From assembly GCA_964016885.1 (NCBI GenBank), contig OZ024742.1, positions 251,844,001-251,908,000 of the forward strand: a DNA stretch of 64,000 bases. The letters run 5' to 3'. The position numbers and the translations under genes were made by a program. Numbering within the stretch: position 1 is the stretch's first letter; each line of letters opens with the position of its first letter. This stretch comes from Eledone cirrhosa (taxonomy: Eukaryota). The notes beneath the pieces are model-generated. The model saw nothing but the letters and a program-made list of their open reading frames with translations, was not told the DNA's origin and did not search any database. This document shows, piece after piece, positions 4,972 through 38,816 of this stretch.

Positions 4972-5010
4972 GATATTAATAAATGGAAACTATATTTATA
5001 AAACCATATT

Positions 5011-6995: not shown

Positions 6996-7173
6996 AATAT
7001 GGTTTTATAAATATAGTTTCCATTTATTAATATCGTATATCTACTCCAAATATTTGTTGAGTGCTTTATATCAGTTATAAAAATATTTGCTTGTTGTATC
7101 CCAACAATTTAAATAAAACTTTTGCATATACTCTGCTCCTGTATTGTTGAGCGCTTTACATTATAACTGAAAA

Positions 7174-10626: not shown

Positions 10627-11862
10627 TATTTTGTATTTTTGTTAATCGCTTGTTAAATGCAAGGACCCCATTCAATCATTACCTTCTTGCTAGCTATTTT
10701 CAAACCTTAATTCCTAACGTATTTTCAAACCTCAATCCCTAATTCTAGCGTATCTTCAAAACAAAAAAAACAAAATCCTTTCCTTCTTCCTTCTTCGAAG
10801 GCACGGGGCGGTCAAACGCCTAACACACACAGCCATCATGTGGCCACCCCCCCCTCTCTCTCTCTCTATATATATATATATATCTATATATATATATATA
10901 TATATGATAGGAATTCACTTCGCCATATTTCATTGCTTGCTGTCTAACCCACGATATTCATGTAAACGTAATGTACGGACTTCATTTCTCTCCCTCCACA
11001 AATCCTAATTCTAGCGTATTTTCAAAACAATCCATATTTCGTATCAAGTCCAAATAGCCAATCTATCGCTAAAACAAACTACATTTTCTGTTTCTATTAA
11101 TTGTTAAATACGAAAGTTTTTGGGCGTATTTAACAGAACAAATTTTGTATTTTTGTTAATCGCTTGTTAAATGCAAGGACCCCATTCAATCATTACCTTC
11201 TTGCTAGCTATTTTCAAACCTTAATTCCTAACGTATTTTCAAACCTCAATCCCTAATTCTAGCGTATCTTCAAAACAAAAAAAACAAAATCCTTTCCTTC
11301 TTCCTTCTTCGAAGGCACGGGGCGGTCAAACGCCTAACACACACAGCCATCATGTGGCCACCCCCCCCTCTCTCTCTCTCTCTATATCTCTATATATATA
11401 TATATATGATAGGAATTCACTTCGCCATATTTCATTGCTTGCTGTCTAACCCACGATATTCATGTAAACGTAATGTACGGACTTCATTTCTCTCCCTCCA
11501 CAAATCCTAATTCTAGCGTATTTTCAAAACAATCCATATTTCGTATCAAGTCCAAATAGCCAATCTATCGCTAAAACAAACTACATTTTCTGTTTCTATT
11601 AATTGTTAAATACGAAAGTTTTTGGGCGTATTTAACAGAACAAATTTTGTATTTTTGTTAATCGCTTGTTAAATGCAAGGACCCCATTCAATCATTACCT
11701 TCTTGCTAGCTATTTTCAAACCTTAATTCCTAACGTATTTTCAAACCTCAATCCCTAATTCTAGCGTATCTTCAAAACAAAAAAAACAAAATCCTTTCCT
11801 TCTTCCTTCTTCGAAGGCACGGGGCGGTCAAACGCCTAACACACACAGCCATCATGTGGCCA

Positions 11863-11895
<33 letters not shown>

Positions 11896-12222
11896 ATATC
11901 TCTATATATATATATATATGATAGGAATTCACTTCGCCATATTTCATTGCTTGCTGTCTAACCCACGATATTCATGTAAACGTAATGTACGGACTTCATT
12001 TCTCTCCCTCCACAAATCCTAATTCTAGCGTATTTTCAAAACAATCCATATTTCGTATCAAGTCCAAATAGCCAATCTATCGCTAAAACAAACTACATTT
12101 TCTGTTTCTATTAATTGTTAAATACGAAAGTTTTTGGGCGTATTTAACAGAACAAATTTTGTATTTTTGTTAATCGCTTGTTAAATGCAAGGACCCCATT
12201 CAATCATTACCTTCTTGCTAGC
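10627..12222 (+). repeat. ~510-bp tandem monomer array forming the RTE-A 5' end
   Basis: ttgtatttttgttaatcgcttgttaaatgcaaggacc recurs at 10631, 11145, 11647 and 12159. Unit length varies with an internal (CT)n(TA)n tract. Confidence 0.9.
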
Positions 12223-12449
12223 TACCCAACACCCCTCCCCCCCACCCCCACGCACCACCATTGCTATTACGTGGACCAATCATAAAACAGAGCCCCCACG
12301 TATCACCAGTATTATTACGCGGACCAATCAGAAACCAGAGGCCTATACTATCGCTTGCCTGGTTGCCTTTCGATATATGATGGATGGATGGACCGCGGAA
12401 TCCTGGAGAGTGGAGGTGAGAGAGAGAAAAATCTGGACGCTCAGCGACA

Positions 12450-15400
12450 ATGCCAAAGATAAAGACAAATTCACCTCCTGGACGAGAATGCGAGCACTCC
12501 TCATTGTTTCGACCGCGGACGGCTAACATAACCCCATCGCCCCCCGCCCCCCACCGCCCCCAACCCCCAAACGCAATCCAAAACTTCAGAGTTGGTACCA
12601 TAAATGTAGGCACCCTAAAGGGTCGCGCTAACGAGGTTGTAGAAATGCTTGAACGTAAGGAGGTCGATGTTTGTTGTATTCAAGAGACCAGGTGGAGGGG
12701 TGGGTCTGCTAGGTTCATTGACGGTAAAAAACGATGTTATAAGCTTTTCTGGGTGGGAAACGACGATGGGCTGGGTGGAGTAGGAATCATGGTAGCAGAA
12801 AAGTGGGCAGATAAGATAATAGACGTAAATAGAGTGACCGACAGAATAATTAAAATACGACTTGTCCTCAATAGAACTACGGTGACAGTAATATCTGCGT
12901 ACGCACCCCAATCCGGACTGCCCGGCACTATAAAAGACAGATTCTATGAGACACTGATGCTAACTACCTCCCAAATATCCGACAGTGACTATATAATTAT
13001 CGCAGGCGACCTAAATGGTCACGTTGGACAACATTGTGACGGCTACGACGAAATCCATGGAGGCTATGGGTTTGGTACTAGAAATGAGGAAGGCTCCAGA
13101 ATCCTGGAATTCTGTGATGCAAATAACCTAACTATCTGTAACACTAACTTCAAAAAACGTGACAATCACTTGATCACCTATAGATCCGGGGAACACACAA
13201 GCCAGGTAGATTATATCCTTACCAGAAGACGTGACAGAGTGTCTGTTGTAAACACTAAATCCCTCCCCCATGAAGAATGCACCTCCCAACATAGACTGAT
13301 AATTAGCGACCTCATAGTCAGGACGAGACGTACTCGACAACAGAAGAGGACTATCCTCAGGAGGAAAATATGGAAGCTAAAGGACCCCACAGCCAGGAAT
13401 AAATTTCAAAGCATATTACTTGATGCTTTCGACAGTAAGGAAGAACATTTAGAGTCGGACAATATAGAGGGAGAGTGGGACTTTCTGAAAGCAAACCTGC
13501 TGTTGGCGACAGACGAAGTCTGTGGCTGGAGCAGGCCTGTAGGCAGGAGGAGAGTAACATGGTGGTGGAACAGTAAGGTCGAGGGGTCAATTAAGGCCAA
13601 AAAGCAGGCTTGGAAAGTATGGCGGGATGGGGGAAGTAGAGAGGACTATCAAGTGGCCAGGAGGGAAGCTAGGAGACAAGTGTACTTAGCAAGAAGGGAA
13701 GCTGAGGAAAGAAAGTTCAAGCATGTTCTACAACGCGATGACCAAAAACGTGAGGTGTTCAGGATTGCTAGGCAATGCGTCAAGGAAAACCGTGATATTG
13801 TCGGGGAGAAGTGTGTACTAAACGACGATGGCACACTTGCCATCACCGACGCTGATAAGAAGGTAGCTTGGAAGTGTCACTATGAAAGGCTACTAAATGA
13901 TGAGAATAAATGGGAGAAATACAGTCTCCCCCATATCGACCCAATAGAGGGACCAGCAGTGTTAGTCGAGGGGAGTATAATAAGTAAGGCAATCAAGGAT
14001 ATGAAGACGGGTAAGGCGGCTGGGCCTTCGGAAATAGTTGCTGAGATGCTGAAGGCATCTGGCACGGTGGGACACACCATGGTCACCCGCATAGTTAACC
14101 AAGTCGTACAGAATGGGGTTGTTCCGAAGGACTGGCATAGCAGCATCATCGTTAACTGTTATAAGGGTAAAGGAGACGCCCTAGATAGGAGTAACTATAG
14201 AGGCATTAAATTAATCGACCAGGTCATGAAGGTCACGGAAAAAGTAATAGCGCAACTAATCAGAGAGAGAATTGACCTAGATGAAATGCAGTTCGGGTTT
14301 GTGTCAGGCAAAAGTACCACAGACGCTCTTTTCATAGTACGACAACTACAGGAGAAGTACCTAGCTAAAGGTAAACCCCTCTACTTAGCTTTTGTCGACT
14401 TGGAGAAAGCCTTCGACAGAGTCCCCCGCTCCATTATCTGGTGGGCTCTTAGAAAACTAGGCGTTGACGAATGGCTTGTGAGGGCTATACAAGCCATGTA
14501 TAAAGAAACAGTCAGCAAGGTTAGAATTAACAACGAATATAGTGAAGAGTTTAGCGTAAAAGTTGGCGTCCATCAGGGCTCTGTTCTCAGCCCACTACTA
14601 TTTATTATTGCCCTTCAGGCTATAACAGAGGAGTTCAAGACAGGCTGCCCATGGGAACTCCTATACGCAGACGACCTGACACTCATAGCGGAATCAATGG
14701 CCGAGCTAGAGAAGAAATTCCAAACATGGAAGCACGGCCTAGAGTCAAAAGGACTTAAAATTAACCTGGCTAAGACCAAAGTACTAGTTTGTAGGAAAGA
14801 AAACAAGGCGGCGGTCCCTTCTGGGAAATGGTCGTGCTCGGTGTGTAGGAAAGGCGTAGGTAGAAACTCCATTTTATGTCCTAAATGCAAAGTATGGGTG
14901 CATAAAAGATGTAGTGGGATCACAGGTAAGCTAACTAAGAACATAGATTTTACATGTGGCCGGTGCTCTGGTGCAATAAGTAGCAGCAAGTGCCCACAAG
15001 CTACTAGCTCCTTCAATTGCGCAGAGGGTTCTATAGAAATAGTGGACAGCTTCCGTTACCTGGGCGATAAAATCAGCAGTGGGGGAGGGTGCTCTGAAAG
15101 TACTGTAGCTAGAGTCAGAACTGGTTGGAAAAAGTTCAGAGAGCTTATACCACTATTAGCTGCTAAAGGGTTCTCACTAAAAATGAAAGGCAGGTTGTAC
15201 GATGCCTGCATACGAACAGCAATGCTGCATGGCAGTGAGACCTGGGCATTGTGTGCAGAGGATATACGCAGACTAGAGAGGAACGAAGCTTGCATGCTCC
15301 GCTGGATGTGTAACAGTAATATACGTGAACGGCAAAGCATAAACGAACTAAGGAAAAAATTAGAGATAAGAGGGATCAGATGTTGTTTACTCGAGAGAAG

Positions 15401-15620
15401 GCTACGTTGGTATGGACACGTGATGCGCATGAAAGTCGATAGCTGTATAACAAAGTGCAGGGCAATAAAGATAGACGGTAGTCACGGAATAGGCAGACCT
15501 AGAAAAACCTGGGACGAGCTGATAAACTCCGACATCACACACTTACACCTCTCCAAGACAATGTCACTGGACCGAGACCTTTGGCGGTACTCAGTAACAG
15601 AGAAGACCCGCCTTACCTAA
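12450..15620 (+). CDS. RTE LINE ORF: AP endonuclease + reverse transcriptase + PHD-like zinc finger (1056 aa, intact)
   Basis: GTINVGTL, IQETRW, SAYAPQ, GDLNGHVG, SQVDYIL, SQHR (APE); YRGIKL, QFGF, FVDLEKAFDRV, GVHQGSVLSP, LYADD, FRYLG (RT); RRLRWYGHV, GRPRKTW (RTE C-terminus). Confidence 0.95.
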   Translation: MPKIKTNSPPGRECEHSSLFRPRTANITPSPPAPHRPQPPNAIQNFRVGTINVGTLKGRANEVVEMLERKEVDVCCIQETRWRGGSARFIDGKKRCYKLFWVGNDDGLGGVGIMVAEKWADKIIDVNRVTDRIIKIRLVLNRTTVTVISAYAPQSGLPGTIKDRFYETLMLTTSQISDSDYIIIAGDLNGHVGQHCDGYDEIHGGYGFGTRNEEGSRILEFCDANNLTICNTNFKKRDNHLITYRSGEHTSQVDYILTRRRDRVSVVNTKSLPHEECTSQHRLIISDLIVRTRRTRQQKRTILRRKIWKLKDPTARNKFQSILLDAFDSKEEHLESDNIEGEWDFLKANLLLATDEVCGWSRPVGRRRVTWWWNSKVEGSIKAKKQAWKVWRDGGSREDYQVARREARRQVYLARREAEERKFKHVLQRDDQKREVFRIARQCVKENRDIVGEKCVLNDDGTLAITDADKKVAWKCHYERLLNDENKWEKYSLPHIDPIEGPAVLVEGSIISKAIKDMKTGKAAGPSEIVAEMLKASGTVGHTMVTRIVNQVVQNGVVPKDWHSSIIVNCYKGKGDALDRSNYRGIKLIDQVMKVTEKVIAQLIRERIDLDEMQFGFVSGKSTTDALFIVRQLQEKYLAKGKPLYLAFVDLEKAFDRVPRSIIWWALRKLGVDEWLVRAIQAMYKETVSKVRINNEYSEEFSVKVGVHQGSVLSPLLFIIALQAITEEFKTGCPWELLYADDLTLIAESMAELEKKFQTWKHGLESKGLKINLAKTKVLVCRKENKAAVPSGKWSCSVCRKGVGRNSILCPKCKVWVHKRCSGITGKLTKNIDFTCGRCSGAISSSKCPQATSSFNCAEGSIEIVDSFRYLGDKISSGGGCSESTVARVRTGWKKFRELIPLLAAKGFSLKMKGRLYDACIRTAMLHGSETWALCAEDIRRLERNEACMLRWMCNSNIRERQSINELRKKLEIRGIRCCLLERRLRWYGHVMRMKVDSCITKCRAIKIDGSHGIGRPRKTWDELINSDITHLHLSKTMSLDRDLWRYSVTEKTRLT

Positions 15621-16010
15621 ATATATAGTAAAACCTACTCCAGCCAGTAGGCATCCCTAACAAAATACACCCCGTCCCACCACCCCCACCCCTACCCCAT
15701 CCACACCACCCCGTTCTATGTAAAGTTATGTTGGTGCCGCGCCATCGAGGCCGAAACAAATGAGATCGTGTAGGTGTCACGACAAAAAAACACACAGTCC
15801 ACGCTGTAATGTGGCCGTGTAGGCAACACGGTAAAAACCTCCCAGACCCACACTGTAAATGTGGTTGGTGTTAGGAAGGGCATCCAACTGTAGAAAACCT
15901 GCCAGACAGTCCTATGCGAGCAAGACAATCACTCTTGCCTCAAGTGGGACTACCCCCGTCCAAACCCATGCAAGCGTGGAACACGGACGTTAAACGTTGA
16001 TGATGATGAT

Positions 16011-16337
16011 ATATATACGATATTAACAAATGGAAACTATATTTATAAAACCATATTTATTTCATTATACATATTTCAAGGACACCAAGTTAAATTATGG
16101 TGTGCTTTCATCAGATAAAATATAATATAGAGCAGTTTTATAAATAAATATTGACATACCCTTAAAGAATGCAACCATTACTGTTGGAAGCTCCCGGATA
16201 GTATGAAATAAATATGGTTTTATAAATATAGTTTCCATTTGTTAATATTGTATTTTTACTCCAATTATTTGTTGAGTGCTTTACATCAGTTATAATAATA
16301 TTTGCTTGTTGTATCCCAACAATTTAAATAGAACTTT

Positions 16338-16345
<8 letters not shown>
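16011..16345 (+). mobile_element. Short fold-back Penelope insertion related to the 4965-10607 element; hammerhead on the minus strand at 16058-16122
   Basis: 16017-16200 is a diverged copy of 4970-5160 (inverted pLTR) and 16203-16342 is a diverged copy of ~6988-7130. Embedded in (TA)n. Confidence 0.8.
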
Positions 16346-16407
<62 letters not shown>

Positions 16408-16410
<3 letters not shown>

Positions 16411-19400
16411 TTCGGTTATTTGTGTCAATTTTCATGATTAAGTAAGACAAGAGTTTTCTTTTGTAATTAAGGCTCATTCGGATTTTAATTTACTCTTTGT
16501 ACTTGAAACAAAAGGTACGCTTCCTTGAGACTAACAATATCATTTTCAATATTTCACAACCAGCAATTTCTAACAGATTACTGAGTTAAGTTATAGATTT
16601 GACACTGTATAATTTATCATTTCAAGCTTGATGTTCATACATTAAGTGAAGTCATAACTTTTACAATATTATGCTTAAATGTATCTAAAGGATGGTTTAT
16701 ACATCAAAGACTTAAAATTATTCTATTTTTTCGCATTGATTAGACTACGTTTCTGACATAATTTAGTTATTAACTTACATACCCTGTACATTTTGAACGT
16801 TCTACTGTTACATGTACTTCAAATACATTTTACAATTAATCTTTATTTTTACATTCAATTGTGTTATATCATGTCTACTTTACACATTTTGTTTTGATGC
16901 CTCATGGAAAAAAAAACAGTTGCCTCAGCAGATTGTCGACCGGTGTGGTTAACGAAAAGCAGCGTCGAGCTAATGAAACTGAGGAGCAGAGGACAACAAG
17001 GTATCCATATTAGCTGCCTACAACGCAAGACTCAATACTTCGCATTCATCACATCGATACTCAGTAGAAAAACTTGCAGCCCGTATGGCAAAAAATGCAC
17101 AAACCACTGCTGCTTCATGATCAAATGAGTCTACAGAAGAACGTACTATTCGGTTAGCACTGTATGCTGCCACGACTGCTGCCTCAAGAGCTGCGGAGAC
17201 ACCTAAACAGAGTGCAACTCGAAGAAAACGCAATGTTGTCACGACTGCTGCCTCAAGAGCTGCGGAGACACCTGAACAACGCATACGTTGCCAGGCTTCC
17301 AATTGTGCTTATCAGACTGCTGCGATAGCTTCTGAAACATTGGTTGAAAGAACTACTCAACTACAAACAATTGCGCATCATAAAGCTGTTCTGCTTGGTG
17401 CATCAAAGCCTACGAGGAATAGATGGGTTTTTAAAGACTTTCATTATGACCCCTCTGAAAATTATGCTGACCACAAAGATGTTGCCATTGATTGTATGTC
17501 CAAAATCTGTCTACACTAAATGTAAAGCACTAACTTGGCCGGGAGAGCCTGTTGGTCTATGCTGCTCAAATGGAAACGTTCGTCTGCCCAACAGCCCTGA
17601 AACTCTACAGCCTTTAAAGTCCCTTCTGCTTGGTGAGCATCCATATTCTCAAAATTTCATGAACCGAATACGGGCATACAATTCTGCATTTCAAATGACA
17701 AGTTTTGGTCATAAGCCCATATCTTATGGAAACTTTAATCCCACTTTTACCATTCAGGGACAGGCGTACCATTTAATCGGTTCTCTTCTACCAACAGATG
17801 CTTATCATCATACTTTTCTTCAGATATACTTCATGGGACCAGAGAGAGAGCAAATTGTACGTTGGGCTGCTGTTGCTCCAGGCACATACACGGCTGTTCT
17901 TAGACCTCTTCAGGAAATGCTTAATGAGCACAACCGGTATATCAACCAATTTAAAACGGCTATTCAACGACGCCGGGCAGACAATGCCAACCAACTTTAA
18001 GGTTGTTATTAGAAGTGACAGGACTCCTGTTGGGGAACGTCGCCGCTGTTACAACCGACCCAAAAGAGAGGAGGTTGCTGTTTTGCTTTGTAATACCAAT
18101 GCAACTCTTTCCAAAAGAGATATCATCCTAGAGTGGCAGGACTCACGTGTTAAGAGGATCAATGAATTAAATCCAGCCTATGATGCCCTTCAATACCCCT
18201 TACTCTTTCCCTATGGAGAGGATGGATACAGTCCTGATATCCCTACCATTGTACCTACAACACACCAAACAGCACAGCCTCCAAAAATGGTTTCCCAGAT
18301 GAACTTCTACAGTTACAGATTGATGGTTAGAATGAACAACTTCAACAGTCTTCACAGAGCAGGGGATCTTCTGAATCAGTATTATGTGGATATGTATGCT
18401 AAGGTAGGATTTACTCCCCTTTGAGTCATGTGTACCTATAATTTTTATTAAAATCTTTGCATAACCATCCTATTCCTTACCCTTGCAGATTAACTCAGAA
18501 CGACTTCTTTGGATTGGCCATAATCAAAAGCAGCTCCGTGCAATGAATATGCCAAGGTTCGAGATGAGGTTAATAATGTAACTGCTTCTGAGGTTGGTAT
18601 TCGAATCATCCTGCCATCGTCATATACAGGCGGCCCGAGGTATATGCATGAAAAGATGCAGGATGCTCTCACATAGGTTAGTCTTTACAACTGCCCTGAC
18701 CTTTTCATAAAGTTCACATGCAACCCCAAATGGGAGGACATCCAAATGAGCTTACTTCCGGGCCAACAACCAGCAGATCGCGATGACATCACTACTCGCG
18801 TTTTTCATCTTAAAGTTCGTAAAATAATTGATTTGTTAAAATGTGGTGAAATTTTCGGGCCGATCCAATGTTTTATGTATACTGTTGAATGGCAAAAACG
18901 TGGTCTACCTCATGCCCACATCTTACTCTGGCTACAAAGCAAACTTCGACCTTCTGACGTGGGCACAGTCATAAGTGCAGAATTTCCAAATCCCAATGAA
19001 GGTCCCCAGTTGTACGAAATCATTCGAAAAAGTATGGTTCATGGGCCATGTCGGCACTTTAATTCTACGTCTTCATCCATGGCAAACGGAAAATGCACTA
19101 AGAAATATCCACGAAAGCTTTTGGCTGAGACGATCACAGATAATGATGGTTACCCATCATATCACAGAAGAACTCCTGGACATGGTGGTTTCACAGCAAC
19201 AATCAAACATGGATCTAACCGAGAATTTACAATTGACAATCAATGGGTTGTTCCACATAACAAGATGCTATGCAAGACATTTAATGCGCATATTAACGTT
19301 GAATATTGTAACTCAGTTAAATCTATACATTACGTTTGCAAATACATCAATAAGGGATCCGATAGAGCCATCTTTCAAGTGGCACAAACAGGAACAGCAG

Positions 19401-21040
19401 CTGCACCAACAGATGAGGTAGAACTGTTTCAAATAGGGCATTATATCTCAATCAATGAGGCCGTTTGGAGAACGTTTGGTTTCCCTATACACGAGCGATT
19501 CCCCCCTGTTCAACATCTCAGTGTTCACTTAGAGAACAAGCAGGGAGTTTACTTCACTGAAGAAAACTTACGTCAACAGGTTCTTGCCCCACGTAGGACA
19601 ACTTTGACTGCATTTTTCAAACTCTGTACGGTTGACTCCTCACAAAAACTCTTCGGTATGTTGATGTTCTTCATTATTATTCTTGGAACCACTCAACTTG
19701 CTTATGGCAAAGAAGAAAACAGGGCCGACATATCGATTCAGATCCTGCCATTTTTGAAAGTGACACAATAGGACGCGTCTATACTGTTCATCCTTTGAAC
19801 TTCGAATGCTTCCATCTTTGACTGCTGCTTCAAGTTGTATGTGGACCAAAATCCTTTGCATCCCTTCGCACAGTGGACGGTCAATTATGCAAGACATTCA
19901 AGGACGCCTGCTTTAAACGGGGAATCATCGATATGGACAACCATTATGAGAGTACACTTGAGGATGTGTCTCTCCGTCAAAGCTTCGGCATCTATTCGCC
20001 ATTATGCTGGTTTTCTGCAACTTTGTTAACACGCCTTTGTTGTGTTATAAATACAGGTACCACATGTGCCACGATATATGGCTTCAAACCTGTCAAGCTA
20101 CCAAAAATTCCACCACTGCTTTTACCCCCTCTATGTATAATGCTGGTCTAATTATCTTGGAGGACTTAGTTGTGGCAATTGGAGGCATACTGCCTTCCTT
20201 CTCCAGATAGAAACCAAGAGCAAACTTTTAATCGACCTCTCCTTAGAGAAACTAGCTACGACAAAACCAAGCTTCGACAATACGTAGCTCTCAACGAGCC
20301 TCTCCTTAATCCAGATCAAGAATCTGCATACAAATCCGTTCTAAACAAGGTATACAGCAATACTGGCAGGATTATCTTCATAGATTCGTATGTGTGCGAG
20401 TACAGGCATTGCATGGGTTCTGTATGTGCGTGCATGTTTTTTTGTGTATGTGCTTGTTGTATTTGCATACCCATGGCGGGTGTTTTCACGTATGCATGTG
20501 TATGTTTGGATGCGTGCATGTATATATTTAATTTTTGTTGATTTCAATTACCTCTGTAATTTATTTACATTATTCTTAACTCTGAAGCCGAGAATCATTC
20601 GGTTTCCTAAATAGAATTTTAGTCTACGACTTCAGTTATACGATAAACAATGGTTTTGTCTTTGCGTGTAATTGTTCTCATCGCTCCACATAACGACGTA
20701 TTATCTTCGTTTTTTCTGTTCATTGCCAGAGAACATCTCCACGAACCACCTAATAGAATATTAGTCTACGACTTCATTTAAACCATATACATGGTTTTGT
20801 CTTTGCGTGTAATTGTTTTCACCGCTCCAAATAATGACGTATTATCTTTGTTTTTTTTTCGTTCTTTGCCAGGGAACGTTCCCACGAACAAAAGTATCGT
20901 CTTCCTGTCTTCCTTCGGTTGCAACGGTTTTCGAAATATTTACTTCTGCGTTCACAGATTGATTTTTTTTAGTTTCATAAGGTCCTGTTAAGGGTGAAAG
21001 CAGTGATTCTTTGCTTACACTTTAATCTGTTATTTTAATA
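16408..21040 (+). mobile_element. Helitron, decayed Rep-helicase pseudogene truncated at the start of the PIF1 helicase
   Basis: Across frameshifted ORFs 17344-20390: FQMTSFG, YHLIGSLLP, YDALQYPLLFPYGEDG, ILPSSYTGGPRYM, FTCNPKW, VEWQKRGLPHAHILLW (HUH), MVHGPC, WVVPHN, HINVE, YVCKYINKG, LNPDQ...IIFID. Imperfect hairpin at ~20990-21023. Element ends are approximate. Confidence 0.88.
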
Positions 21041-21048
21041 TATATATA

Positions 21049-24000
21049 TCATCATCATCATCATCATCATCATCATTTTACGTCCGCTTTTCCCTGCTTG
21101 CAAGGGTGGGACGGGTCTTATTCAGCACAGCATCTCTCCACTCGTCACGGTCCCTCGTCATCTCCACCGTGAGATTCAATGATCTGAGGTCTGCTCTCAC
21201 CACCTCCGCCCATGTTTTTCGTGGTCTACCTCTACCACGTCTTCCTTCAACTGGCATTTCCTGGCACTTCTTCACCCATCGGTCATCCTCCATGCGCATC
21301 ACATGTCCATACCACCTCAATCTCCTCTCCCGTACACTACATTCTATCCCTCTCAGACACAGTTTCTCTCTCAACACATTTATGCTGGGTCGTTCACGCA
21401 CATTTACACTGCACATCCAACGGAGCATGCTTGCCTCATTTCTCTCCAGCCGTCGCATATCCTCTGCGGTTGCTGCCCATGTCTCACTACCATGCAGCAT
21501 CGCGCTCCTCACACAGGCATCATACAACCGGCCTTTCGTACGCAGGGAGAAACCCGTCTTCGTCAACAGAGGAAGCAGCTCCCTAAACTTCTTCCAACCC
21601 ATCCTTATTCTAGATACTATGGCCTCGGAACACCCTCCTCCCATGCTAATCTGATCTCCTAGGTACCGGAAGCTATCCACCACTTCTATAGTGCCCTCTC
21701 GCATTTGAAAAATGTGTCTATCAGTGCGACTTCTACTGTCTAATTTCCCTGTACATCTACTGCATACATATTTCTCCCTACCTGTTAGTTTGCCTGCTAT
21801 CCCGCTACATCTCTTGTGTACCCAGGACCTGCATTGTGTGCATTTTATAGAATTTATGCCAGTTCCTTTTCTGCATATCGAACATGGCCATTTCCCTGAC
21901 GGAATCAGGGTTTTGTCCTCTTTTCTACTCATCAACACTTTTGTCTTAGCTAGATTTACTCTCACCAGATGACAGATCGGGGTACCCTATCAAAGGCCTT
22001 CTCTAGGTCAACAAAGGCTAAGTATAGTGGCTTATTCTTCTCTAAGAACCTCTCTTGCATTTGTCTCACCAAGAAGAGGGCATCTGTTGTACTCTTCCCA
22101 GGCACAAAACCAAACTGCATCTCATCTAGTTTGACCCTTTCTCTAATTAGTTGTGCTAAAATCCTTTCTGCCACTTTCATAACCTGATCTATCAGTTTTA
22201 TACCCCTATAATTGCTCCTCTCCAAAGCATCCCCTTTACCTTTGTAGCAATTTATGAGAATACTGCTGCACCAGTCTTTGGGTATGACACCACCATATAT
22301 AGCCTGATTGATGATGCGTGCAACCAGTTTAGTGCCTACGTCCCCTGATGCCTTCAGCATCTCAGCAACTATTCCCGATGGTCCGGCCGCCTTACCATTT
22401 TTCATTTCCCTAATCGCCTCTTGGACCCTATATTCGTCAATCTCAATAGCTGGTCCCTCTGTCGGATCTACCAAGGGTAATTTCTCTCTCTCCCATTCGT
22501 TCTCCACATTCATCAGTCTCTCATAATGACATTTCCAGGCTTCCTTTTTTTTCTGGTCATTCGTGACACTAAGTACACCGGCATCATCCCGGACACATTT
22601 ATCTCCAACAACATCCTGATTTGCATTGACACACTGCCTTGCAATGTGGAACACCGCACGCCTCTGATCTTCCCGTTGCAGAACATTGGCAAACCTCCTA
22701 CTCTCCACCTCCCTGCGTGCTAAGTACACCTGACGTCTAGCTTCTCTCTTAGTGGCTGTATATTCTTCCCTACTCCCACCCTTTTTCCAAGCCTTCCATG
22801 CTAGTCTTTTGTCTCTAATGGCCTTAACTACTGTGCTGTTCCACCACCAGGTCACTCTCTGTCTGGTTGGAGCTCTGCTCCAGCCACAAGTTTCATCAGT
22901 AGCCTGCAGCAAGTTGTCACGTGAGAACTTCCAGTTATTATCTATGTCATACGTCTCTAAATCGTCTTCTTTTTCGTAATATACATCTTGAAGGGCTTTC
23001 CTAAATTTCTATTTTAGTGAAAGGTCTTTTAGCTTCCAGACCTTTCTTCTCCACACCTTCCTATATGTCTCATTCCATCTCTTGCTTACTGAGATATCAC
23101 TAACAACTAACCTATGCTGTGGGGTACATTCTTCCCCAGGGTATGCCTTGGTATTAGACACTATCTGCCTGTCCCGCTGCCTAACTAGCAGGAAGTCAAT
23201 CTGGCTTATGTGCTCACCAGATTTGTAGGTTATTAGGTGATTGGCAGGTTTCTGGAAGTTTGTGTTGCAAATAGTCAATGTACTCGCATCACAAAATTCA
23301 AGAAGTCTCACTCCTTCTTCATTTCTTGAACCGTAACCGTGCCCACCATGTACCCCAGTGTAACCATCCTGGAGCTGTCCAACATGACCATTGAAGTCTC
23401 CTGCTAGCATAACGATGTCTCCGTCCTCTGTCATTGTGGTTGTTTGCAAAAGTTGCTCATAAAAGCAGTCTTTCTCATCTTTGCCTAGGCCTGCTTGGGG
23501 AGCATAGACCGAGATGATTGTCAGTAGTCTCCTACCTACAACTAATCTAAGCTTAATTATTCGATTACTAACTCGAACTACCTCTATTGTCTTATTGATC
23601 CATTTCTCAGCCAGGAAAATGCCTACTCCCCTAACCCATCATCCTTACCTACCCAGAATAGCTTATAGCTAAGACGCTTGCCTACTAGTCTCGCAGAGGC
23701 ACCTCTCCATGTCACCTCTTGCACGCAGCACACATCCACCTGCCTTCTCTCCAGCATCTAAGCTATTTCAGCAGATCTACCTCTGAGAGTGCCAACATTA
23801 AGTGTTGCAACTCTGAGATGCGACGTCTTCATATTTTCCTATGCTGTTTTGTTGCTGTGCTGATAGGCTTTTTGGCATTGATACACTGGTTGGATGCCCT
23901 TCCTAACACCAGCGCCACTTTACAGCATGGACTGGGTGCTTTTATTTGTGCCATCAGCACTAGAGAGGATGTCTTACTAGACTCAAGGCCCCTCTCTACC

Positions 24001-24202: not shown

Positions 24203-24240
<38 letters not shown>

Positions 24241-24243
<3 letters not shown>

Positions 24244-26340
24244 TGGAATAAATGCTCTGAAATAGCGATATATATGTGAATATAGACATAGAATATTCGA
24301 AAATATTCTGTATGTTTATAATAAACATTTTGAAGACCTAATCGCTATAGAATAGAATACGTCACGTATTACAATTAGATTCTCGATAAAAGCAAGGGAA
24401 GTAATCTACGCGTTTCATTCTCGTTAGAAATCATCAGGACTACATATCCAGTGCTTTTATCGAGAATGACACAGCTAGAGACTTATAGAATACTTAGCTG
24501 TGTACAGGAACTGGTTTGAAAGAGCGGTTGCCGGTCCGGCAGAAATTAGAAATTGGAATAAATGCTCTGAAATAGCGATATATATGTGAATATAGACATA
24601 GAATATTCGAAAATATTCTGTATGTTTATAATAAACATTTTGAAGACCTAATCGCTATAGAATAGAATACGTCACGTATTACAATTAGATTCTCGATAAA
24701 AGCAAGGGAAGTAATCTACGCGTTTCATTCTCGTTAGAAATCATCAGGACTACATATCCAGTGCTTTTATCGAGAATGACACAGCTAGAGACTTATAGAA
24801 TACTTAGCTGTGTACAGGAACTGGTTTGAAAGAGCGGTTGCCGGTCCGGCAGAAATTAGAAATTGGAATAAATGCTCTGAAATAGCGATATATATGTGAA
24901 TATAGACATAGAATATTCGAAAATATTCTGTATGTTTATAATAAACATTTTGAAGACCTAATCGCTATAGAATAGAATACGTCACGTATTACAATTAGAT
25001 TCTCGATAAAAGCAAGGGAAGTAATCTACGCGTTTCATTCTCGTTAGAAATCATCAGGACTACATATCCAGTGCTTTTATCGAGAATGACACAGCTAGAG
25101 ACTTATAGAATACTTAGCTGTGTACAGGAACTGGTTTGAAAGAGCGGTTGCCGGTCCGGCAGAAATTAGAAATTGGAATAAATGCTCTGAAATAGCGATA
25201 TATATGTGAATATAGACATAGAATATTCGAAAATATTCTGTATGTTTATAATAAACATTTTGAAGACCTAATCGCTATAGAATAGAATACGTCACGTATT
25301 ACAATTAGATTCTCGATAAAAGCAAGGGAAGTAATCTACGCGTTTCATTCTCGTTAGAAATCATCAGGACTACATATCCAGTGCTTTTATCGAGAATGAC
25401 ACAGCTAGAGACTTATAGAATACTTAGCTGTGTACAGGAACTGGTTTGAAAGAGCGGTTGCCGGTCCGGCAGAAATTAGAAATTGGAATAAATGCTCTGA
25501 AATAGCGATATATATGTGAATATAGACATAGAATATTCGAAAATATTCTGTATGTTTATAATAAACATTTTGAAGACCTAATCGCTATAGAATAGAATAC
25601 GTCACGTATTACAATTAGATTCTCGATAAAAGCAAGGGAAGTAATCTACGCGTTTCATTCTCGTTAGAAATCATCAGGACTACATATCCAGTGCTTTTAT
25701 CGAGAATGACACAGCTAGAGACTTATAGAATACTTAGCTGTGTACAGGAACTGGTTTGAAAGAGCGGTTGCCGGTCCGGCAGAAATTAGAAATTGGAATA
25801 AATGCTCTGAAATAGCGATATATATGTGAATATAGACATAGAATATTCGAAAATATTCTGTATGTTTATAATAAACATTTTGAAGACCTAATCGCTATAG
25901 AATAGAATACGTCACGTATTACAATTAGATTCTCGATAAAAGCAAGGGAAGTAATCTACGCGTTTCATTCTCGTTAGAAATCATCAGGACTACATATCCA
26001 GTGCTTTTATCGAGAATGACACAGCTAGAGACTTATAGAATACTTAGCTGTGTACAGGAACTGGTTTGAAAGAGCGGTTGCCGGTCCGGCAGAAATTAGA
26101 AATTGGAATAAATGCTCTGAAATAGCGATATATATGTGAATATAGACATAGAATATTCGAAAATATTCTGTATGTTTATAATAAACATTTTGAAGACCTA
26201 ATCGCTATAGAATAGAATACGTCACGTATTACAATTAGATTCTCGATAAAAGCAAGGGAAGTAATCTACGCGTTTCATTCTCGTTAGAAATCATCAGGAC
26301 TACATATCCAGTGCTTTTATCGAGAATGACACAGCTAGAG
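24241..26340 (-). mobile_element. Retrozyme-like tandem array, left arm: ~6.8 x 310-bp hammerhead-containing monomers
   Basis: aattggaataaatgctctga recurs at 24241, 24551, 24861, 25171, 25481, 25791 and 26101. Minus-strand hammerhead at 24401-24443 and every 310 nt (7 copies). Confidence 0.88.
24401..24443 (-). ncRNA. Minimal type-I hammerhead ribozyme (representative left-arm copy, sense to the host gene)
   Basis: Reverse complement of 26485-26527. Confidence 0.88.
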
Positions 26341-28200
26341 ACATATATATCGCTATTTCAGAGCATTTATTCCAATTTCTAATTTCTGCCGGACCGGCAA
26401 CCGCTCTTTCAAACCAGTTCCTGTACACAGCTAAGTATTCTATAAGTCTCTAGCTGTGTCATTCTCGATAAAAGCACTGGATATGTAGTCCTGATGATTT
26501 CTAACGAGAATGAAACGCGTAGATTACTTCCCTTGCTTTTATCGAGAATCTAATTGTAATACGTGACGTATTCTATTCTATAGCGATTAGGTCTTCAAAA
26601 TGTTTATTATAAACATACAGAATATTTTCGAATATTCTATGTCTATATTCACATATATATCGCTATTTCAGAGCATTTATTCCAATTTCTAATTTCTGCC
26701 GGACCGGCAACCGCTCTTTCAAACCAGTTCCTGTACACAGCTAAGTATTCTATAAGTCTCTAGCTGTGTCATTCTCGATAAAAGCACTGGATATGTAGTC
26801 CTGATGATTTCTAACGAGAATGAAACGCGTAGATTACTTCCCTTGCTTTTATCGAGAATCTAATTGTAATACGTGACGTATTCTATTCTATAGCGATTAG
26901 GTCTTCAAAATGTTTATTATAAACATACAGAATATTTTCGAATATTCTATGTCTATATTCACATATATATCGCTATTTCAGAGCATTTATTCCAATTTCT
27001 AATTTCTGCCGGACCGGCAACCGCTCTTTCAAACCAGTTCCTGTACACAGCTAAGTATTCTATAAGTCTCTAGCTGTGTCATTCTCGATAAAAGCACTGG
27101 ATATGTAGTCCTGATGATTTCTAACGAGAATGAAACGCGTAGATTACTTCCCTTGCTTTTATCGAGAATCTAATTGTAATACGTGACGTATTCTATTCTA
27201 TAGCGATTAGGTCTTCAAAATGTTTATTATAAACATACAGAATATTTTCGAATATTCTATGTCTATATTCACATATATATCGCTATTTCAGAGCATTTAT
27301 TCCAATTTCTAATTTCTGCCGGACCGGCAACCGCTCTTTCAAACCAGTTCCTGTACACAGCTAAGTATTCTATAAGTCTCTAGCTGTGTCATTCTCGATA
27401 AAAGCACTGGATATGTAGTCCTGATGATTTCTAACGAGAATGAAACGCGTAGATTACTTCCCTTGCTTTTATCGAGAATCTAATTGTAATACGTGACGTA
27501 TTCTATTCTATAGCGATTAGGTCTTCAAAATGTTTATTATAAACATACAGAATATTTTCGAATATTCTATGTCTATATTCACATATATATCGCTATTTCA
27601 GAGCATTTATTCCAATTTCTAATTTCTGCCGGACCGGCAACCGCTCTTTCAAACCAGTTCCTGTACACAGCTAAGTATTCTATAAGTCTCTAGCTGTGTC
27701 ATTCTCGATAAAAGCACTGGATATGTAGTCCTGATGATTTCTAACGAGAATGAAACGCGTAGATTACTTCCCTTGCTTTTATCGAGAATCTAATTGTAAT
27801 ACGTGACGTATTCTATTCTATAGCGATTAGGTCTTCAAAATGTTTATTATAAACATACAGAATATTTTCGAATATTCTATGTCTATATTCACATATATAT
27901 CGCTATTTCAGAGCATTTATTCCAATTTCTAATTTCTGCCGGACCGGCAACCGCTCTTTCAAACCAGTTCCTGTACACAGCTAAGTATTCTATAAGTCTC
28001 TAGCTGTGTCATTCTCGATAAAAGCACTGGATATGTAGTCCTGATGATTTCTAACGAGAATGAAACGCGTAGATTACTTCCCTTGCTTTTATCGAGAATC
28101 TAATTGTAATACGTGACGTATTCTATTCTATAGCGATTAGGTCTTCAAAATGTTTATTATAAACATACAGAATATTTTCGAATATTCTATGTCTATATTC
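26341..28200 (+). mobile_element. Retrozyme-like tandem array, right arm: 6.0 x 310-bp monomers, inverted relative to the left arm
   Basis: acatatatatcgctatttcagagc recurs at 26341, 26651, 26961, 27271, 27581 and 27891. It is the reverse complement of the left-arm monomer and runs into (TA)n at 28201. Confidence 0.88.
26485..26527 (+). ncRNA. Minimal type-I hammerhead ribozyme (representative copy; repeats at 26795, 27105, 27415, 27725, 28035)
   Basis: gtagtc-CTGATGA-tttct aacg agaat-GAAA-cgcg-TA^-gattac. Stem I gtagtc/gattac, palindromic stem III ACGCGT, predicted cleavage after GUA at 26521. Enclosed by attctcgataaaagca/tgcttttatcgagaat. Confidence 0.9.
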
Positions 28201-28210
28201 ATATATATAT

Positions 28211-28292
<82 letters not shown>

Positions 28293-28298
<6 letters not shown>

Positions 28299-31200
28299 TG
28301 ATGCTAACTACCTCCCAAATATCCGACAGTGACTATATAATTATCGCAGGCGACCTAAATGGTCACGTTGCACAACATTGTGACGGCTACGACGAAATCC
28401 ATGGAGGCTATGGGTTTGGTACTAGAAATGAGGAAGGCTCCAGAATCCTGGAATTCTGTGATGCAAATAACCTAACTATCTGTAACACTAACTTCAAAAA
28501 ACGTGACAATCACTTGATCACCTATAGATCCGGGGAACACACAAGCCAGGTAGATTATATCCTTACCAGAAGACGTGACAGAGTGTCTGTTGTAAACACT
28601 AAATCCCTCCCCCATGAAGAATGCACCTCCCAACATAGACTGATAATTAGCGACCTCATAGTCAGGACGAGACGTACTCGACAGCAGAAGAGGACTATCC
28701 TCAGGAGAAAAATATGGAAGCTAAAGGACCCCACAGCCAGGAATAAATTTCAAAGCATATTACTTGATGCTTTCGACAGTAAGGAAGAACATTTAGAGTC
28801 GGACAATATAGAGGGAGAGTGGGAATTTCTGAAAGCAAACCTGCTGTTGGCGACAGACGAAGTCTGTGGCTGGAGCAGGCCTGTAGGCAGGAGGAGAGTA
28901 ACATGGTGGTGGAACAGTAAGGTGGAGGGGTCAATTAAGGCCAAAAAGCAGGCTTGGAAAGTATGGCGGGATGGGGGAAGTAGAGAAGACTATCAAGTGG
29001 CCAGGAGGGAAGCTAGGAGACAAGTGTACTTAGCAAGAAGGGAAGCTGAGGAAAGAAAGTTCAAGCATGTTCTACAACGCGATGACCAAAAACGTGAGGT
29101 GTTCAGGATTGCTAGGCAATGCGTCAAGGAAAACCGTGATATTGTCGGGGAGAAGTGTGTACTAAACGACGATGGCACACTTGCCATCACCGACGCTGAT
29201 AAGAAGGTAGCTTGGAAGTGTCACTATGAAAGGCTACTAAATGAGGAGAATAAATGGGAGAAAGACAGTCTCCCCCATATCGACCCAATAGAGGGACCAG
29301 CAGTGTTAGTCGAGGGGAGTATAATAAGTAAGGCAATCAAGGATATGAAGACGGGTAAGGCGGCTGGGCCTTCGGAAATAGTTGCTGAGATGCTGAAGGC
29401 ATCTGGCACGGTGGGACACACCATGGTCACCCGCATAGTTAACCAAGTCGTACAGAATGGGGTTGTTCCGAAGGACTGGCATAGCAGCATCATCGTTAAC
29501 TGTTATAAGGGTAAAGGAGACGCCCTAGATAGGAGTAACTATAGAGGCATTAAATTAATCGACCAGGTCATGAAGGTCACGGAAAAAGTAATAGCGCAAC
29601 TAATCAGAGAGAGAATCGACCTAGATGAAATGCAGTTCGGGTTTGTGTCAGGCGAAAGTACCACAGACGCTCTTTTCATAGTACGACAACTACAGGAGAA
29701 GTACCTAGCTAAAGGTAAACCCCTCTACTTAGCTTTTGTCGACTTGGAGAAAGCCTTCGACAGAGTCCCCCGCTCCATTATCTGGTGGGCTCTTAGAAAA
29801 CTAGGCGTTGACGAATGGCTTGTGAGGGCTATACAAGCCATGTATAAAGAAACAGTCAGCAAGGTTAGAATTAACAACGAATATAGTGAAGAGTTTAGCG
29901 TAAAAGTTGGCGTCCATCAGGGCTCTGTTCTCAGCCCCCTACTATTTATTATTGCCCTTCAGGCTATAACAGAGGAGTTCAAGACCGGCTGCCCATGGGA
30001 ACTCCTATACGCAGACGACCTGACACTCATAGCGGAATCAATGACCGAGCTAGAGAAGAAATTCCAAACATGGAAGCACAGCCTAGAATCAAAAGGCCTT
30101 AAAATTAACCTGGCTAAGACCAAAGTTCTAGTTTGTAGGAAAGAAAATAAGGCGGCGGTCCCTTCTGGGAAATGGTCGTGCTCGGTGTGTAGGAAAGGCG
30201 TAGGTAGAAACTCCATTTTATGTCCTAAATGCAAAGTATGGGTGTATAAAAGATGTGGTGGGATCACAGGTAAGCTAACTAAGAACATAGATTTTACATG
30301 TGGCCGGTGCTCTGGTGCAATAAGTAGCAGCAAGTGCCCACAAAATACTAGCTCTTTCAATTGCGCAGAGGGTTCTATAGAAATAGTGGACAGTTTCCGT
30401 TACCTGGGTGATAAAATCAGCAGTGGGGGAGGGTGCTCTGAAAGTACAGTATCTAGAGTCAGAACTGGTTGGAAAAAGTTCAGAGAGCTTATACCACTAT
30501 TAGCTGCTAAAGGGTTCTCCCTAAAAATGAAAGGCAGGTTGTACGATGCCTGCATACGAACAGCAATGTTGCATGGCAGTGAGACCTGGGCATTGTGTGC
30601 AGAGGATATACGCAGACTAGAGAGGAACGAAGCTTGCATGCTCCGCTGGATGTGTAACAGTAATATACGTGAACGGCAAAGCATAAACGAACTAAGGAAA
30701 AAATTAGAAATAAGAGGGATCAGATGTTGTTTACTCGAGAGAAGGCTACGTTGGTATGGACACGTGATGCGCATGAAAGTCGATAGCTGTATAACAAAGT
30801 GCAGGGCAATAAAGATAGACGGTAGCCACGGAATAGGCAGACCTAGAAAAACCTGGGACGAGCTGATAAACTCCGACCTCACACACTTACACCTCTCCAA
30901 GACAATGTCACTGGACCGAGACCTTTGGCGGTACTCAGTAACAGAGAAGACCCGCCTTACCTAAATACATAGTAAAACCTACTACAGCCAGTAGGCATCT
31001 CTAACAAAATACCCCCCGTCCCCCCCGTCCCACCACCCCCACCCCATCCACACCACCCCGTTCTATGTAAAGTTATGTTGGTGCCACACCATCCAGGCCG
31101 AAACAAATGAGATTGTGTAGGTGTCACGACAAAAAAACACACAGTCCACGCTGTAATGTGGCCGTGTAGGCAACACGGTAAAAACCTCCCAGACCCACAC

Positions 31201-36141: not shown

Positions 36142-38816
36142 CCGTATATACTCGTGTATAGGTCGCCCCGGCAGATAGGTCGCATACCCACTTTTCATTT
36201 AACAAATAGGCTATTTGCCATTGACTCGCAGATAGGTCGCACTGAAATTTGGACCGTCAAACTACTATTTTTTATGATAATTGAAACTAATAATCTGTTA
36301 GCTTTTCATTACTTCACCGTTGCGATATATATGCCAAACCATGTTTTATTTATAAAATAAACATTAACGTCATCGGAATTTTGTCAATTCGAGATTACTG
36401 CGAGATAAAGCCTTTAAGCGTGAAAATTAACTCTTAATATAGTGAAACAACTTGAAATAACACGTCTTTTTTAACGTTGAAAGTATAACAGATTTTTAGC
36501 GTATCAACATGGCTTCCCAAAGTAGCGAATACCGACTTTGAAGGTTTTACATGCGACGACATTCGAAATGAAAAAGAAACACAAGATAATATTAGTGATT
36601 TATCTTCAAATGAATCAGACGTATTTATTTCTGACGATGATAGTTACTTTGAAAGTGAAAGCAAAGATCTGACGGACACACCATTGAAAATATTACAGCA
36701 ACGTGGTTGAAAGATACAACACCAATACATGTTCACACCTGTTAATGAACTTATATATTGGGAACACTCTGTTACATAAATTTACACCATACATTGTGTA
36801 AGAGTAAATTGCAAATATTATTTTGACTGGTGAAAAGGTTTTAGACATTTTTTTCAATGAAAATATTTGCCTGGGATGTAGAGAAAGACTAAAACCTTGT
36901 ACTAATTATATCTGCATTTTTAATTAATTCACCTGTTCGGAAAACTGCTAGAATTGATGGAAGTCAACATTTAGGTCATTATTGAATTTTTTTGCAACAA
37001 ATCTAACAGTTAAGGCAGATAAAGTTTAAATTTTTGTGTTTATCCATAAAGTTATTACTTTTACACCTGTTAATTAAATAGTTTTTTCATTTCATCATCT
37101 GTAACTGTGCATTCGTTATAATAGTCATTCAATTCATCTTCACATTCTTCAATATCATCTCCCTCATCACTCTCCGCATTTTCTGTCTTTTCACCAACTA
37201 AATCCTCATATAACACATCATCTTCAGTCCCATCCATCGCATTTGATATGCCTCATTTTTTGAAAGCCTTCATTATTAACTCTTCGGGGATACTTTCCCA
37301 AGCCTTCTTCACCCACTCCACCACTAATGTCAAGCCAGCTCTTTTCAATGATCCACCTTTGGTAATTTCTTTTTCACCTGATATCATCCAAGAAGTCCAG
37401 AGTTTACGGATATAAGTCTTGAAGGGCTTATTTATTGCTACATCATTTATTGCAACCACCAGGAATCAGTGCTTGTCTTGTTTTACAATCCTTCAGCTTA
37501 GCCTTTACAGACTCACAGCAGTGAGATCGAAACATATCCCAAACTAGCAAACTTTGTGGCTTCAGTAATGCCCCTGTCCTTTTCATCCTCACTTCATCAA
37601 GCCATAACTTTGTGAAGGTATATCCAAAGGGCTGGATGGACGAGAACTTAACAATCACATCGCTTGGAAAATTCTCTTTCAGGATAATTTTCCTTTTGAA
37701 AATAACCATAGGGCGAAGTTTTTTTCCATCAGCCTGGCATGCTAGAACAACAGTAAAATGTTGTTTTTCATGACCTGTGGTTTTGACTGTAACAATTTTG
37801 TTACCTACACTATTCACAGTTGTGTTGCCTGGCATGTCAAAGTACATGGGTGTTTCATCCATGTTGGCTATATTCTCCATGGCAAAATCAAACATTTTTC
37901 TTTCCTTTAACACAAATTTTACAAAATTGTGTACTTTGTCATCAATATCTTTTGGCAGCTTTTGTGCAATATGTGTCTTTTGAAGAAGAGTCAGTCCAAA
38001 CCTATTTATAAACCTGGTGCACCACCCTGCTGACGATTTAAATTGGGATAAGTGGTACTTTGGTGCAAGTTGAGGGGCTTTCGTTCTTATAGAAAGTCTT
38101 GTAACAATGTGTCCATTTTCCCTATCTAAAACCCAATCATTTAGCTCTTTTTCAAGATTTTGATATGGTGATACTCCAAACCTTGCTGCTCTCTTTGATT
38201 TAGGCATTTCTCCCAGCTTGTCTTTTTGTTTCCTCCAACCTCTCACCACCTTTTCTGACACTAAAAACTCCCTTTCTGCTGATCTATTTCCAAATTCTTC
38301 TGCATAACCAACCACCTTTAACTTGAAAACTGTTTGATAACTTTTTTCTTACCGGAATTCATATTTCTCAGTGAATTATAAAAAAAATTTCAACTATCAA
38401 CTTTTCTCACTTGCTAATTTTGAAAAGAAATGGCACATGCAATAATCTGTTTCCTGTTAAAGTAAATACGTCACAATACGTGTTCATAGCAACGCTAAGA
38501 CAATGGAATCACATTTTAAATACCGGGTATGCATTTCTATGGATTTTAATGATGGATGGTTCGGTCAGATAGAAAAAAACGTAAACACTACAAAGTTTTA
38601 GTAAAAAATTTAAAATCTAGAAATATATGTATAAGAAGGTAGATATATGAAATTATTATGTTAAATAATAAAAAATATTAACAAAGTTATTTTTATAAAT
38701 ACCCATCGTCTATGAAAAATCATTGGTCAGTCTGATGTCGATCGGATAGGTCGCATCCCAAAAATTTATACTTATTTATCGTTAAAAAAGTGCAATCTAT
38801 ACATGAGTATATACAG
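36142..38816 (-). mobile_element. pogo/Tigger-type (Tc1/mariner superfamily) DNA transposon with TIRs and TA target duplication
   Basis: Left TA|ccgtatatactcgtgtataggtcgc and right gcaatctatacatgagtatatacag|TA form an imperfect 25-bp TIR. The flanks rejoin into an RTE coding frame. Confidence 0.88.
37150..38362 (-). pseudogene. pogo-family transposase (Brinker/CENP-B HTH + DDE_1), frameshifted
   Basis: MNSGKKKSYQTVFKLKVV...FKSSAGWCTRF...NMDETP...KTTGHEK.HFTVVLAC.ADG.KL...LVWDMFRSH...IPGGC, then a frameshift into DVAINKPFK...WVKKAWESIP. 3' limit approximate. Confidence 0.85.

Follow-up and report, generated by a model that had tools for sequence, protein, structure and literature searches.

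This locus raises the question of how an inverted array of identical hammerhead ribozyme units came to lie within a (TA)n tract. The array is part of a window of 64,000 nucleotides from Eledone cirrhosa, the whole stretch of DNA analyzed here (GenBank assembly GCA_964016885.1, contig OZ024742.1, positions 251,844,001 to 251,908,000 of the forward strand), and a first-pass annotation had described it as a candidate retrozyme. Our analysis suggests, with a probability of about 0.8, that it belongs to a family of non-autonomous retrozymes of the non-long terminal repeat (non-LTR) kind, which would be mobilized by Penelope-like elements (PLEs) and copied from one probably circular RNA template primed from both DNA ends.

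An inverted array of 310-nt hammerhead units

The array was first annotated as about 6.8 minus-strand copies of a 310-bp unit followed by 6.0 plus-strand copies, with no differences among them and inserted in (TA)n, and this description holds. The minus arm comprises 2,103 bp (6.78 copies) and the plus arm 1,861 bp (6.00 copies), with zero mismatches to a single unit sequence in either arm. The arms overlap by 2 nt at the center of the array, and (TA)n flanks both sides (Table 1). All 13 expected hammerhead cores are present (7 minus, 6 plus), in agreement with the claim that every unit carries a complete type I hammerhead. An open reading frame (ORF) scan of the window found no ORF of 150 or more amino acids in the array interior. 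The criterion applied to retrozymes is a target-site duplication of more than 4 bp when one is present; at this array the duplication is unreadable because both flanks consist of (TA)n. Unit positions are numbered from the first base after the predicted cut.

Table 1. Coordinates of the array, its parts and two coding PLEs. Positions refer to the window unless a contig is given.
Feature	Positions	Strand	Description
Left (TA)n target tract	24206–24240	none	
Left arm	24240–26342	-	RNA sense leftward; outer end is unit position 167 (site S2)
37-nt 'tail'	24240–24276	-	Unit positions 131–167, present at this end only
Central inversion joint	26341–26342		2-nt microhomology; inner ends are unit positions 235 and 130
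Right arm	26341–28201	+	6.00 identical copies; outer end is unit position 130 (site S1)
One predicted monomer	26522–26831	+	Cleavage site to cleavage site; 310 nt, 34.5% G+C, non-coding
Type I hammerhead, first plus copy	26485–26527	+	Predicted cut after 26521
16-bp perfect stem closing the ribozyme	26461–26549	+	26461–26476 pairs with 26534–26549
AU tract of the unit	26650–26661	+	S1 ends fall here (unit positions 125–139); complementary to the (TA)n target
Right (TA)n target tract	28202–28293	none	
Window PLE-like element	4971–9600		Intact 743-aa ORF at 7171–9402; minimal hammerhead at 6939
L191	G000:C1:64823000–64829100		With L192–L205, a young autonomous PLE family

The predicted ribozyme has a helix I of 6 bp that includes one G-U pair, a helix II of 4 bp with a U-U at its base, and a helix III reduced to a single A-U pair closing the palindromic loop ACGCGU. 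Because helix III is minimal and palindromic, the ribozyme appears to be of the dimer type, and folding predicts that it should work poorly as a monomer and act as a dimer instead. Folding calculations assign -7.5 kcal/mol to self-pairing of the helix III palindrome. Hammerheads of this kind have been described as acting as dimers (PMC4209133; PMC7229834; here and below, published work is cited from the accessible portions of each text). The 110-nt ribozyme region folds better than shuffled sequences (z -4.39; 0 of 200 shuffles as good), as does the monomer (z -3.91; 1 of 100 shuffles as good). An Rfam scan of 5.5 kb around the array returned no match, and the sole hit to a 106-nt query was Hammerhead_HH9, whose alignment covers the whole core but scores 15.8 bits (E 0.11), well short of the gathering score of 52.

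Among 617 copies from 70 loci, the hammerhead core is intact in 615. Fixed variants within the ribozyme fall at free position 7, in loop II, at the base of helix II, where U-U becomes A-U, and in helix I, where Watson-Crick and wobble pairs are exchanged. Likewise, fixed variants at unit positions 20 and 259 yield G-U pairs in the 16-bp stem. Judged from this pattern of variation, the predicted hammerhead is under constraint.

A very young family with many insertions

A pattern search of the genome (3.0 Gb in 1,796 contigs) located 4,033 exact copies of the 43-nt ribozyme, compared with none for the reversed control. On the plus strand alone, 619 junctions with (AT)n mark S1 ends (near position 130) and 687 mark S2 ends (near position 165). 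Reverse-strand junction counts are inflated by the variable gap in the pattern, and plus-strand counts were doubled instead, giving an estimate of ~1,200–1,400 insertions; the dispersed arrays that a genome-wide search had been proposed to find are thus abundant. In 20 consecutive loci the mean is at least 7.4 units, and 35 of 145 ribozymes are of the exact type. By extrapolation, the genome carries ~10,000–17,000 units, or 3–5 Mb. A larger extrapolated figure of 25,000 units was rejected, as many of the loci behind it had been picked for lacking the reference ribozyme.

For closer study, 70 stretches from the first 120 Mb of one contig (C1) were examined. Ten had been located through an exact ribozyme, 40 through an S1 end and 20 through an S2 end without a listed S1 partner, and the first ~16 of the 40 S1-picked stretches had been chosen for lacking an exact ribozyme match. 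The 69 loci scored are these stretches plus the window, with one merged stretch set aside. Sporadic differences number only 67 in 128.6 kb, a count that includes copying and assembly errors. This near absence of mutation across insertions, together with the identical copies in the window, bears out the claim that the insertion is very young. The retrozyme identity is also supported, given a non-coding tandem unit with a hammerhead in each copy and residence at many loci.

Copies as perfectly identical as those in the window might be expected of an assembly or fold-back read artifact, particularly as polishing can homogenize arrays. However, the flanks of the insertions are unique and unmirrored, and haplotype and center joint are specific to each locus. 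In contigs from a public run, the unit also passes into (TA)n at these sites, although this run may derive from the assembly's own sample, and two other public runs contain a 340-nt contig identical to the unit. We regard the chance of such an artifact as negligible. Contigs identical to the unit (window positions 26341–26960) occur in runs X1, X2 and X6, under three organism labels that differ from that of the run with the deepest coverage of the unit; related species, recent spread or contamination could each account for them. Six public runs from four studies contain the unit and none is listed as an RNA run, which speaks neither for nor against expression, and contigs of this kind are uninformative about RNA ends, strand or level.

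Every two-ended insertion examined joins two distinct fixed ends

The outer ends of the insertions follow one rule. All 53 two-ended loci pair one S1 end with one S2 end, and neither S1-S1 nor S2-S2 combinations occur; both insertions of the merged stretch are built in the same way. S1 ends fall at positions 125–139 (mode 130) and S2 ends at positions 157–172 (mode 165), leaving a tail offset of 35–37 nt, most commonly 35. The arms point outward in every case, and 43 of the first 51 insertions are inverted. The remaining 16 of the 69 loci consist of nine with a single arm and seven cut by a stretch edge or gap.

Arm length varies from 0.3 to ~20 units, with medians of 3.4 and 4.4 that do not differ significantly, and the inner ends are scattered along the unit. 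Clustering of inner ends at the cleavage site was not significant over ten bins (p 0.075), with an excess at positions 13–61. Of 40 simple center joints, nine contain inserted bases, and 18 of the other 31 have at least two bases of microhomology, compared with 18% for random joints.

The median length of pure (TA) runs is 24 nt beside S1 and 21 nt beside S2. Most loci were picked through a (TA)n junction at one end, and the 10 loci picked through the ribozyme agree on the (TA)n target. The spread of S1 ends across the AU tract would fit pairing of a (TA)n primer in a sliding register. The idea that (TA)n was added in a telomerase-like manner, starting from the AU tract, found no support, as the lengths of the runs at S1 and S2 ends do not differ (p 0.38). 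The two outer ends, each at a fixed site, have the appearance of priming (3′) ends. The inversion of Penelope type that had been proposed for the array is found genome-wide, whereas the accompanying picture of a single insertion with an incidental 5′ inversion gives way to one with two fixed priming ends.

An autonomous PLE leaves the same footprint

Insertions of PLEs often include an inverted truncated copy, a 30–40-bp tail at one end only, and a microsatellite target (PMC8557442). A purified PLE protein, predicted to be a dimer, cuts both DNA strands and extends them, with synthesis beginning at two sites inside the RNA that delimit the tail (PMC11167929). At the level of junction sequence, the combination of offset ends, inversion and (TA)n target seen in this family is the published Penelope 'tail' signature.

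Coding elements of the same genome provide a direct comparison. PLEs are plentiful in it, with 10,596 GIY-YIG candidates genome-wide, of which 150 were scored. The L191 family, which encodes reverse transcriptase (RT) and GIY-YIG domains, is very young, with 89 matches at 94–100% identity, 16 of them equal-scoring and many with frames of ~900 aa. Its protein comprises 859 aa from the ATG, its tandem spacing is ~3.13 kb, its hammerhead core carries a U4C change, and its 44-nt tail contains the start codon. Eight inverted pairs, selected for being inverted, all lie in (TA)n, with ends 119 nt and 163–166 nt after the element's own minimal hammerhead, and variants are common to both arms. An autonomous PLE of this genome thus produces the same footprint, located about as far from its ribozyme as in the retrozyme. 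The tailed end lies at the left in assembly orientation in all eight pairs.

These ends bear on the possibility that RTE or another long interspersed nuclear element (LINE) mobilizes the family by L1-style twin priming. Twin priming by L1 yields 5′ inversions, and several RT ORFs with AP-endonuclease domains are present in the window. L1 inversions, however, combine one fixed end with a variable internal site, whereas both ends of the present insertions are fixed and internal to the RNA, with no poly(A) or short-repeat tail, as in PLEs. LINE mobilization therefore seems a remote prospect, and mobilization by PLEs remains the preferred reading.

Two other PLEs were considered as partners and rejected. 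The window PLE has ends ~90 nt apart, and a Neptune-like family has ends ~65 nt apart (by eye), neither of which matches the unit's ~35. The window PLE has an inverted terminal copy near 4971–5730 that adjoins (TA)n, and many of its genomic copies, at 83–98% identity, are intact. Its ORF has no Pfam match and weak similarity to another PLE; we take the element to resemble the Hydra clade, and the clade names used here (Hydra-, Neptune- and Poseidon-like) are presumed resemblances only. A hammerhead-core-like motif at 16114 (minus strand) belongs to a second inverted terminal-repeat insertion of this family. The 3′ regions of L123, L124 and L129, which are Neptune-like PLEs, seemingly carry a terminal repeat with a U3-A8 hammerhead and a palindromic helix III (by eye).

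The template was probably a single closed unit

Variants that distinguish the insertions show how the two arms of each are related. Among 43 inverted insertions there are 17 haplotypes, with a probability of 0.18 that two loci match by chance. In 34 of 37 testable loci, both arms carry the fixed variants. Three mismatches rest on single-copy positions, one of them within an otherwise agreeing locus, and a further mismatch, at L175, is real. Because both arms carry the same locus-private variants, the two derive from one RNA or one source. Private variants fill even short arrays (4/4 copies at L036 and 4/4 at L048), and therefore one unit was amplified into many at or before insertion. These shared haplotypes support the proposal that the arrays were made by repeated copying of a single 310-nt unit.

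Sporadic variants behave differently from fixed ones, as 32 of the 34 testable are unshared between arms and two are shared. A monomer template is favored over a linear array transcript, because sporadic variants inherited from such a transcript should appear in both arms at the same index. In addition, 614 of 614 cleavage junctions lack a non-templated indel, with only one heritable insertion and rare substitutions observed. Template jumping between linear monomers is disfavored by these clean junctions, because it should scar the cut site. A closed monomer RNA read repeatedly would be the simplest reading of these data. Circular templates have been hypothesized previously for PLEs and retrozymes (PMC4209133; PMC7229834).

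Alternatively, PLE twin priming might act on a linear multimer, either an uncleaved array transcript or an RNA-to-RNA rolling-circle product, with the ribozyme incidental to integration. Such a template would likewise place one haplotype in both arms and give exact junctions, and would account for two loci whose arms share variants at the first index. Moreover, PLE insertion in vitro proceeds without need of ribozyme cleavage, with unprocessed RNA as the main substrate (PMC11167929). However, truncating copying can only shorten arrays and cannot spread a variant through every copy at L036 and L048, so that some step from one unit to many is required in any case. A linear multimer also leaves the unshared sporadic variants, which should be shared if inherited, and the conservation of the ribozyme core across families without an explanation. 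We consider it unlikely, although rolling-circle copying at the RNA level followed by reverse transcription may be compatible with the data.

A model for twin priming and observations that weigh against it

Under the preferred reading of a probably circular template primed from both ends, array transcripts would be cut by dimeric hammerheads and ligated into 310-nt circles. A PLE protein, probably a dimer, would cut both strands of a (TA)n tract, and the two DNA 3′ ends would prime on a shared RNA, at the AU tract near position 130 in one case and ~35 nt downstream, near position 165, in the other. Each reverse transcription would then round the unit 0.3 to ~20 times before the two cDNAs were joined mid-way and filled in.

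A broader proposal, to which we give even odds, is that the arrays record Penelope integration itself. A PLE dimer would cut both strands, and both ends would roll independently around the same closed RNA from sites 35–44 nt apart. Twin rolling-circle reverse transcription on a circle made by the ribozyme would then give rise to the pseudo-long terminal repeats (pLTRs), partial tandems, inversions and tail of all PLEs as by-products, and the 310-nt circle would be a minimal substrate that is active today.

Several observations weigh against the circular, PLE-mobilized reading. The ribozyme's score in Rfam is far below threshold, the active fold of the monomer is unfavorable (+0.9 versus -8.1 kcal/mol), and in Xenopus one of nine predicted retrozyme dimers cleaved (bioRxiv 10.64898/2026.07.22.740005). 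The closely studied loci come from part of a single contig, and nine of 69 are single-armed. No PLE similar in sequence to the unit was found among 46 GIY-YIG loci, the window PLE and L191, and the 44-nt tail of the L191 PLE differs in length from the commonest tail of the unit. Furthermore, L146 and L157 each share a sporadic variant at the same (first) index in both arms, and at L175 the variant changes part-way along one arm. A pure monomer circle is insufficient, because it cannot give these three patterns, and some templates were probably multimers. Finally, the long arrays at L151 and L051/L052 carry signs of later exchange, with variants recurring at a 7-unit spacing.

These recurring variants would also be expected of a satellite undergoing in-place expansion through unequal crossing-over, and the birth of tandem repeats from PLE termini has been discussed (bioRxiv 10.64898/2026.07.22.740005). 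Neither such a satellite nor capture of a 310-bp DNA circle at (TA)n breaks, however, explains the two fixed ends, their invariant S1 and S2 pairing in all 53 loci, the uniform direction of inversion or the matching arrangement of coding PLEs. This alternative is highly improbable and close to refuted.

Relation to known elements

Animal non-LTR retrozymes from coral, mussel, axolotl and Xenopus (PMC7229834; bioRxiv 10.64898/2026.07.22.740005) share with this family non-coding, low-GC tandem units of 150–450 bp, one type I hammerhead per unit and residence at many loci. Helix III of the unit resembles that of axolotl HHR_Amex1, with one pair and a palindromic tetraloop, and the unit is similar to HHR_Amex2 in the U-U with which helix II begins at its base (PMC7229834). 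Published animal retrozymes form head-to-tail arrays, whereas outward two-armed insertions with two fixed ends are not described in the accessible portions of these texts. RNA expression and cleavage have been demonstrated for the published retrozymes, whereas cleavage and a circular RNA form are predictions for the present family.

Retrozyme papers name a PLE or a LINE as the candidate mobilizing enzyme. PLEs are only a strong candidate in PMC7229834, whose accessible text contains neither 'octopus' nor 'cephalopod'. The link drawn in bioRxiv 10.64898/2026.07.22.740005 rests on co-occurrence and pLTR phylogeny in 35 genomes, with no junction analysis in the part available. The accessible text of an octopus repeat annotation (PMC13282606) does not contain 'ribozyme', and that of PMC7761336 holds nothing further on retrozymes with PLE footprints. 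A literature search whose coverage left out most subscription papers turned up no retrozyme described as having an inverted PLE footprint with two ends, and no junction-level evidence in print for PLE mobilization of retrozymes. As judged from these comparisons, the class is already known and this family is a new and very young member of it.

With PLEs of EN+ clades (PMC8557442; PMC11167929; PMC4209133) the family shares an inverted 5′-truncated copy, a 30–40-nt tail, a microsatellite target, partial tandems and a hammerhead with a palindromic helix III. The unit differs from PLEs in lacking an RT or GIY-YIG ORF, in its length of 310 nt instead of ~3 kb, and in its repetition, with up to ~20 copies per arm. 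Searches by blastn and with a shared-module profile of the 46 GIY-YIG loci and the masked window recovered only retrozyme copies, and the L191 PLE shares no significant sequence with the unit. No pLTR homologue of the unit was found in the 46 loci, the window PLE or L191 (150 of the 10,596 GIY-YIG candidates having been scored). Non-autonomous Chlamys elements such as MRC1 (PMC8557442) are also PLE passengers with multicopy head-to-tail insertions. They are green algal, however, and mostly lack canonical hammerheads. Their 3′ sequence is also shared with autonomous partners, and no such sharing was found for the present unit.

Viroids and viroid-like circular RNAs resemble the unit in size, self-paired fold, hammerhead and probable circular form. 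Viroid-like RNAs are defined by replication from RNA to RNA that involves no DNA, and their ribozymes often occur on both polarities. They differ in that the family has a DNA stage at more than 1,000 loci and a ribozyme motif on one polarity only, with no antisense hammerhead core motif in the unit and no evidence of infection or RNA replication. The term 'viroid-like' in the first-pass annotation was thus an overstatement.

Which enzyme moves animal retrozymes, whether circular RNA is the template and how the tandem, inverted and tailed insertions of PLEs originate are openly stated questions (PMC7229834; PMC8557442; PMC11167929). More than 1,000 near-mutation-free insertions allow models of mobilization to be tested by counting junctions and haplotypes. 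The family also supplies a 310-nt RNA with two mapped start sites, together with intact PLE proteins of the same genome, and rapidly adds long palindromes to this genome.

A sister family and other features

An older sister retrozyme family has a 317-nt unit and 99 matches to a 25-nt motif. Its unit is 74% identical to the 310-nt unit over positions 59–215 and ~55% identical elsewhere, and its insertions have the same two ends and inverted layout (L061–L092 and L094, including a further variant). Helix III of the sister hammerhead is longer than in the 310-nt unit and helix II shows compensatory changes. The 3-8 core pair is U-A in 11 and C-G in 4 of 15 distinct ribozymes and is mismatched in none. 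The sister ribozyme matches Rfam HH9 at 21.7 bits (E 0.0016).

Two more short hammerhead elements, inverted and in (TA)n, were observed at L128:183–310 and at L135:5190–5330 and 5480–5860; helix II of one is nearly the same as that of the 310-nt family. It seems that several PLE passengers coexist in the genome, inserted into one another's TA tracts.

Other hammerhead-core-like motifs in the window lie at 2533, 36631 and 58379 (plus strand) and at 49829 (minus strand). Just downstream of the PLE ORF, at 10630–12230, a ~510-bp unit occurs about three times in tandem, with short CT/TA tracts between the copies. LINE copies, of which most have a PHD finger following the RT domain, occupy 12420–15620, 21078–23638, 28295–30964, 39271–41019, 55541–57367 and 60135–62000. 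The window also contains a Helitron fragment at 18677–19771 and a Tc5/DDE fragment at 37443–38348.

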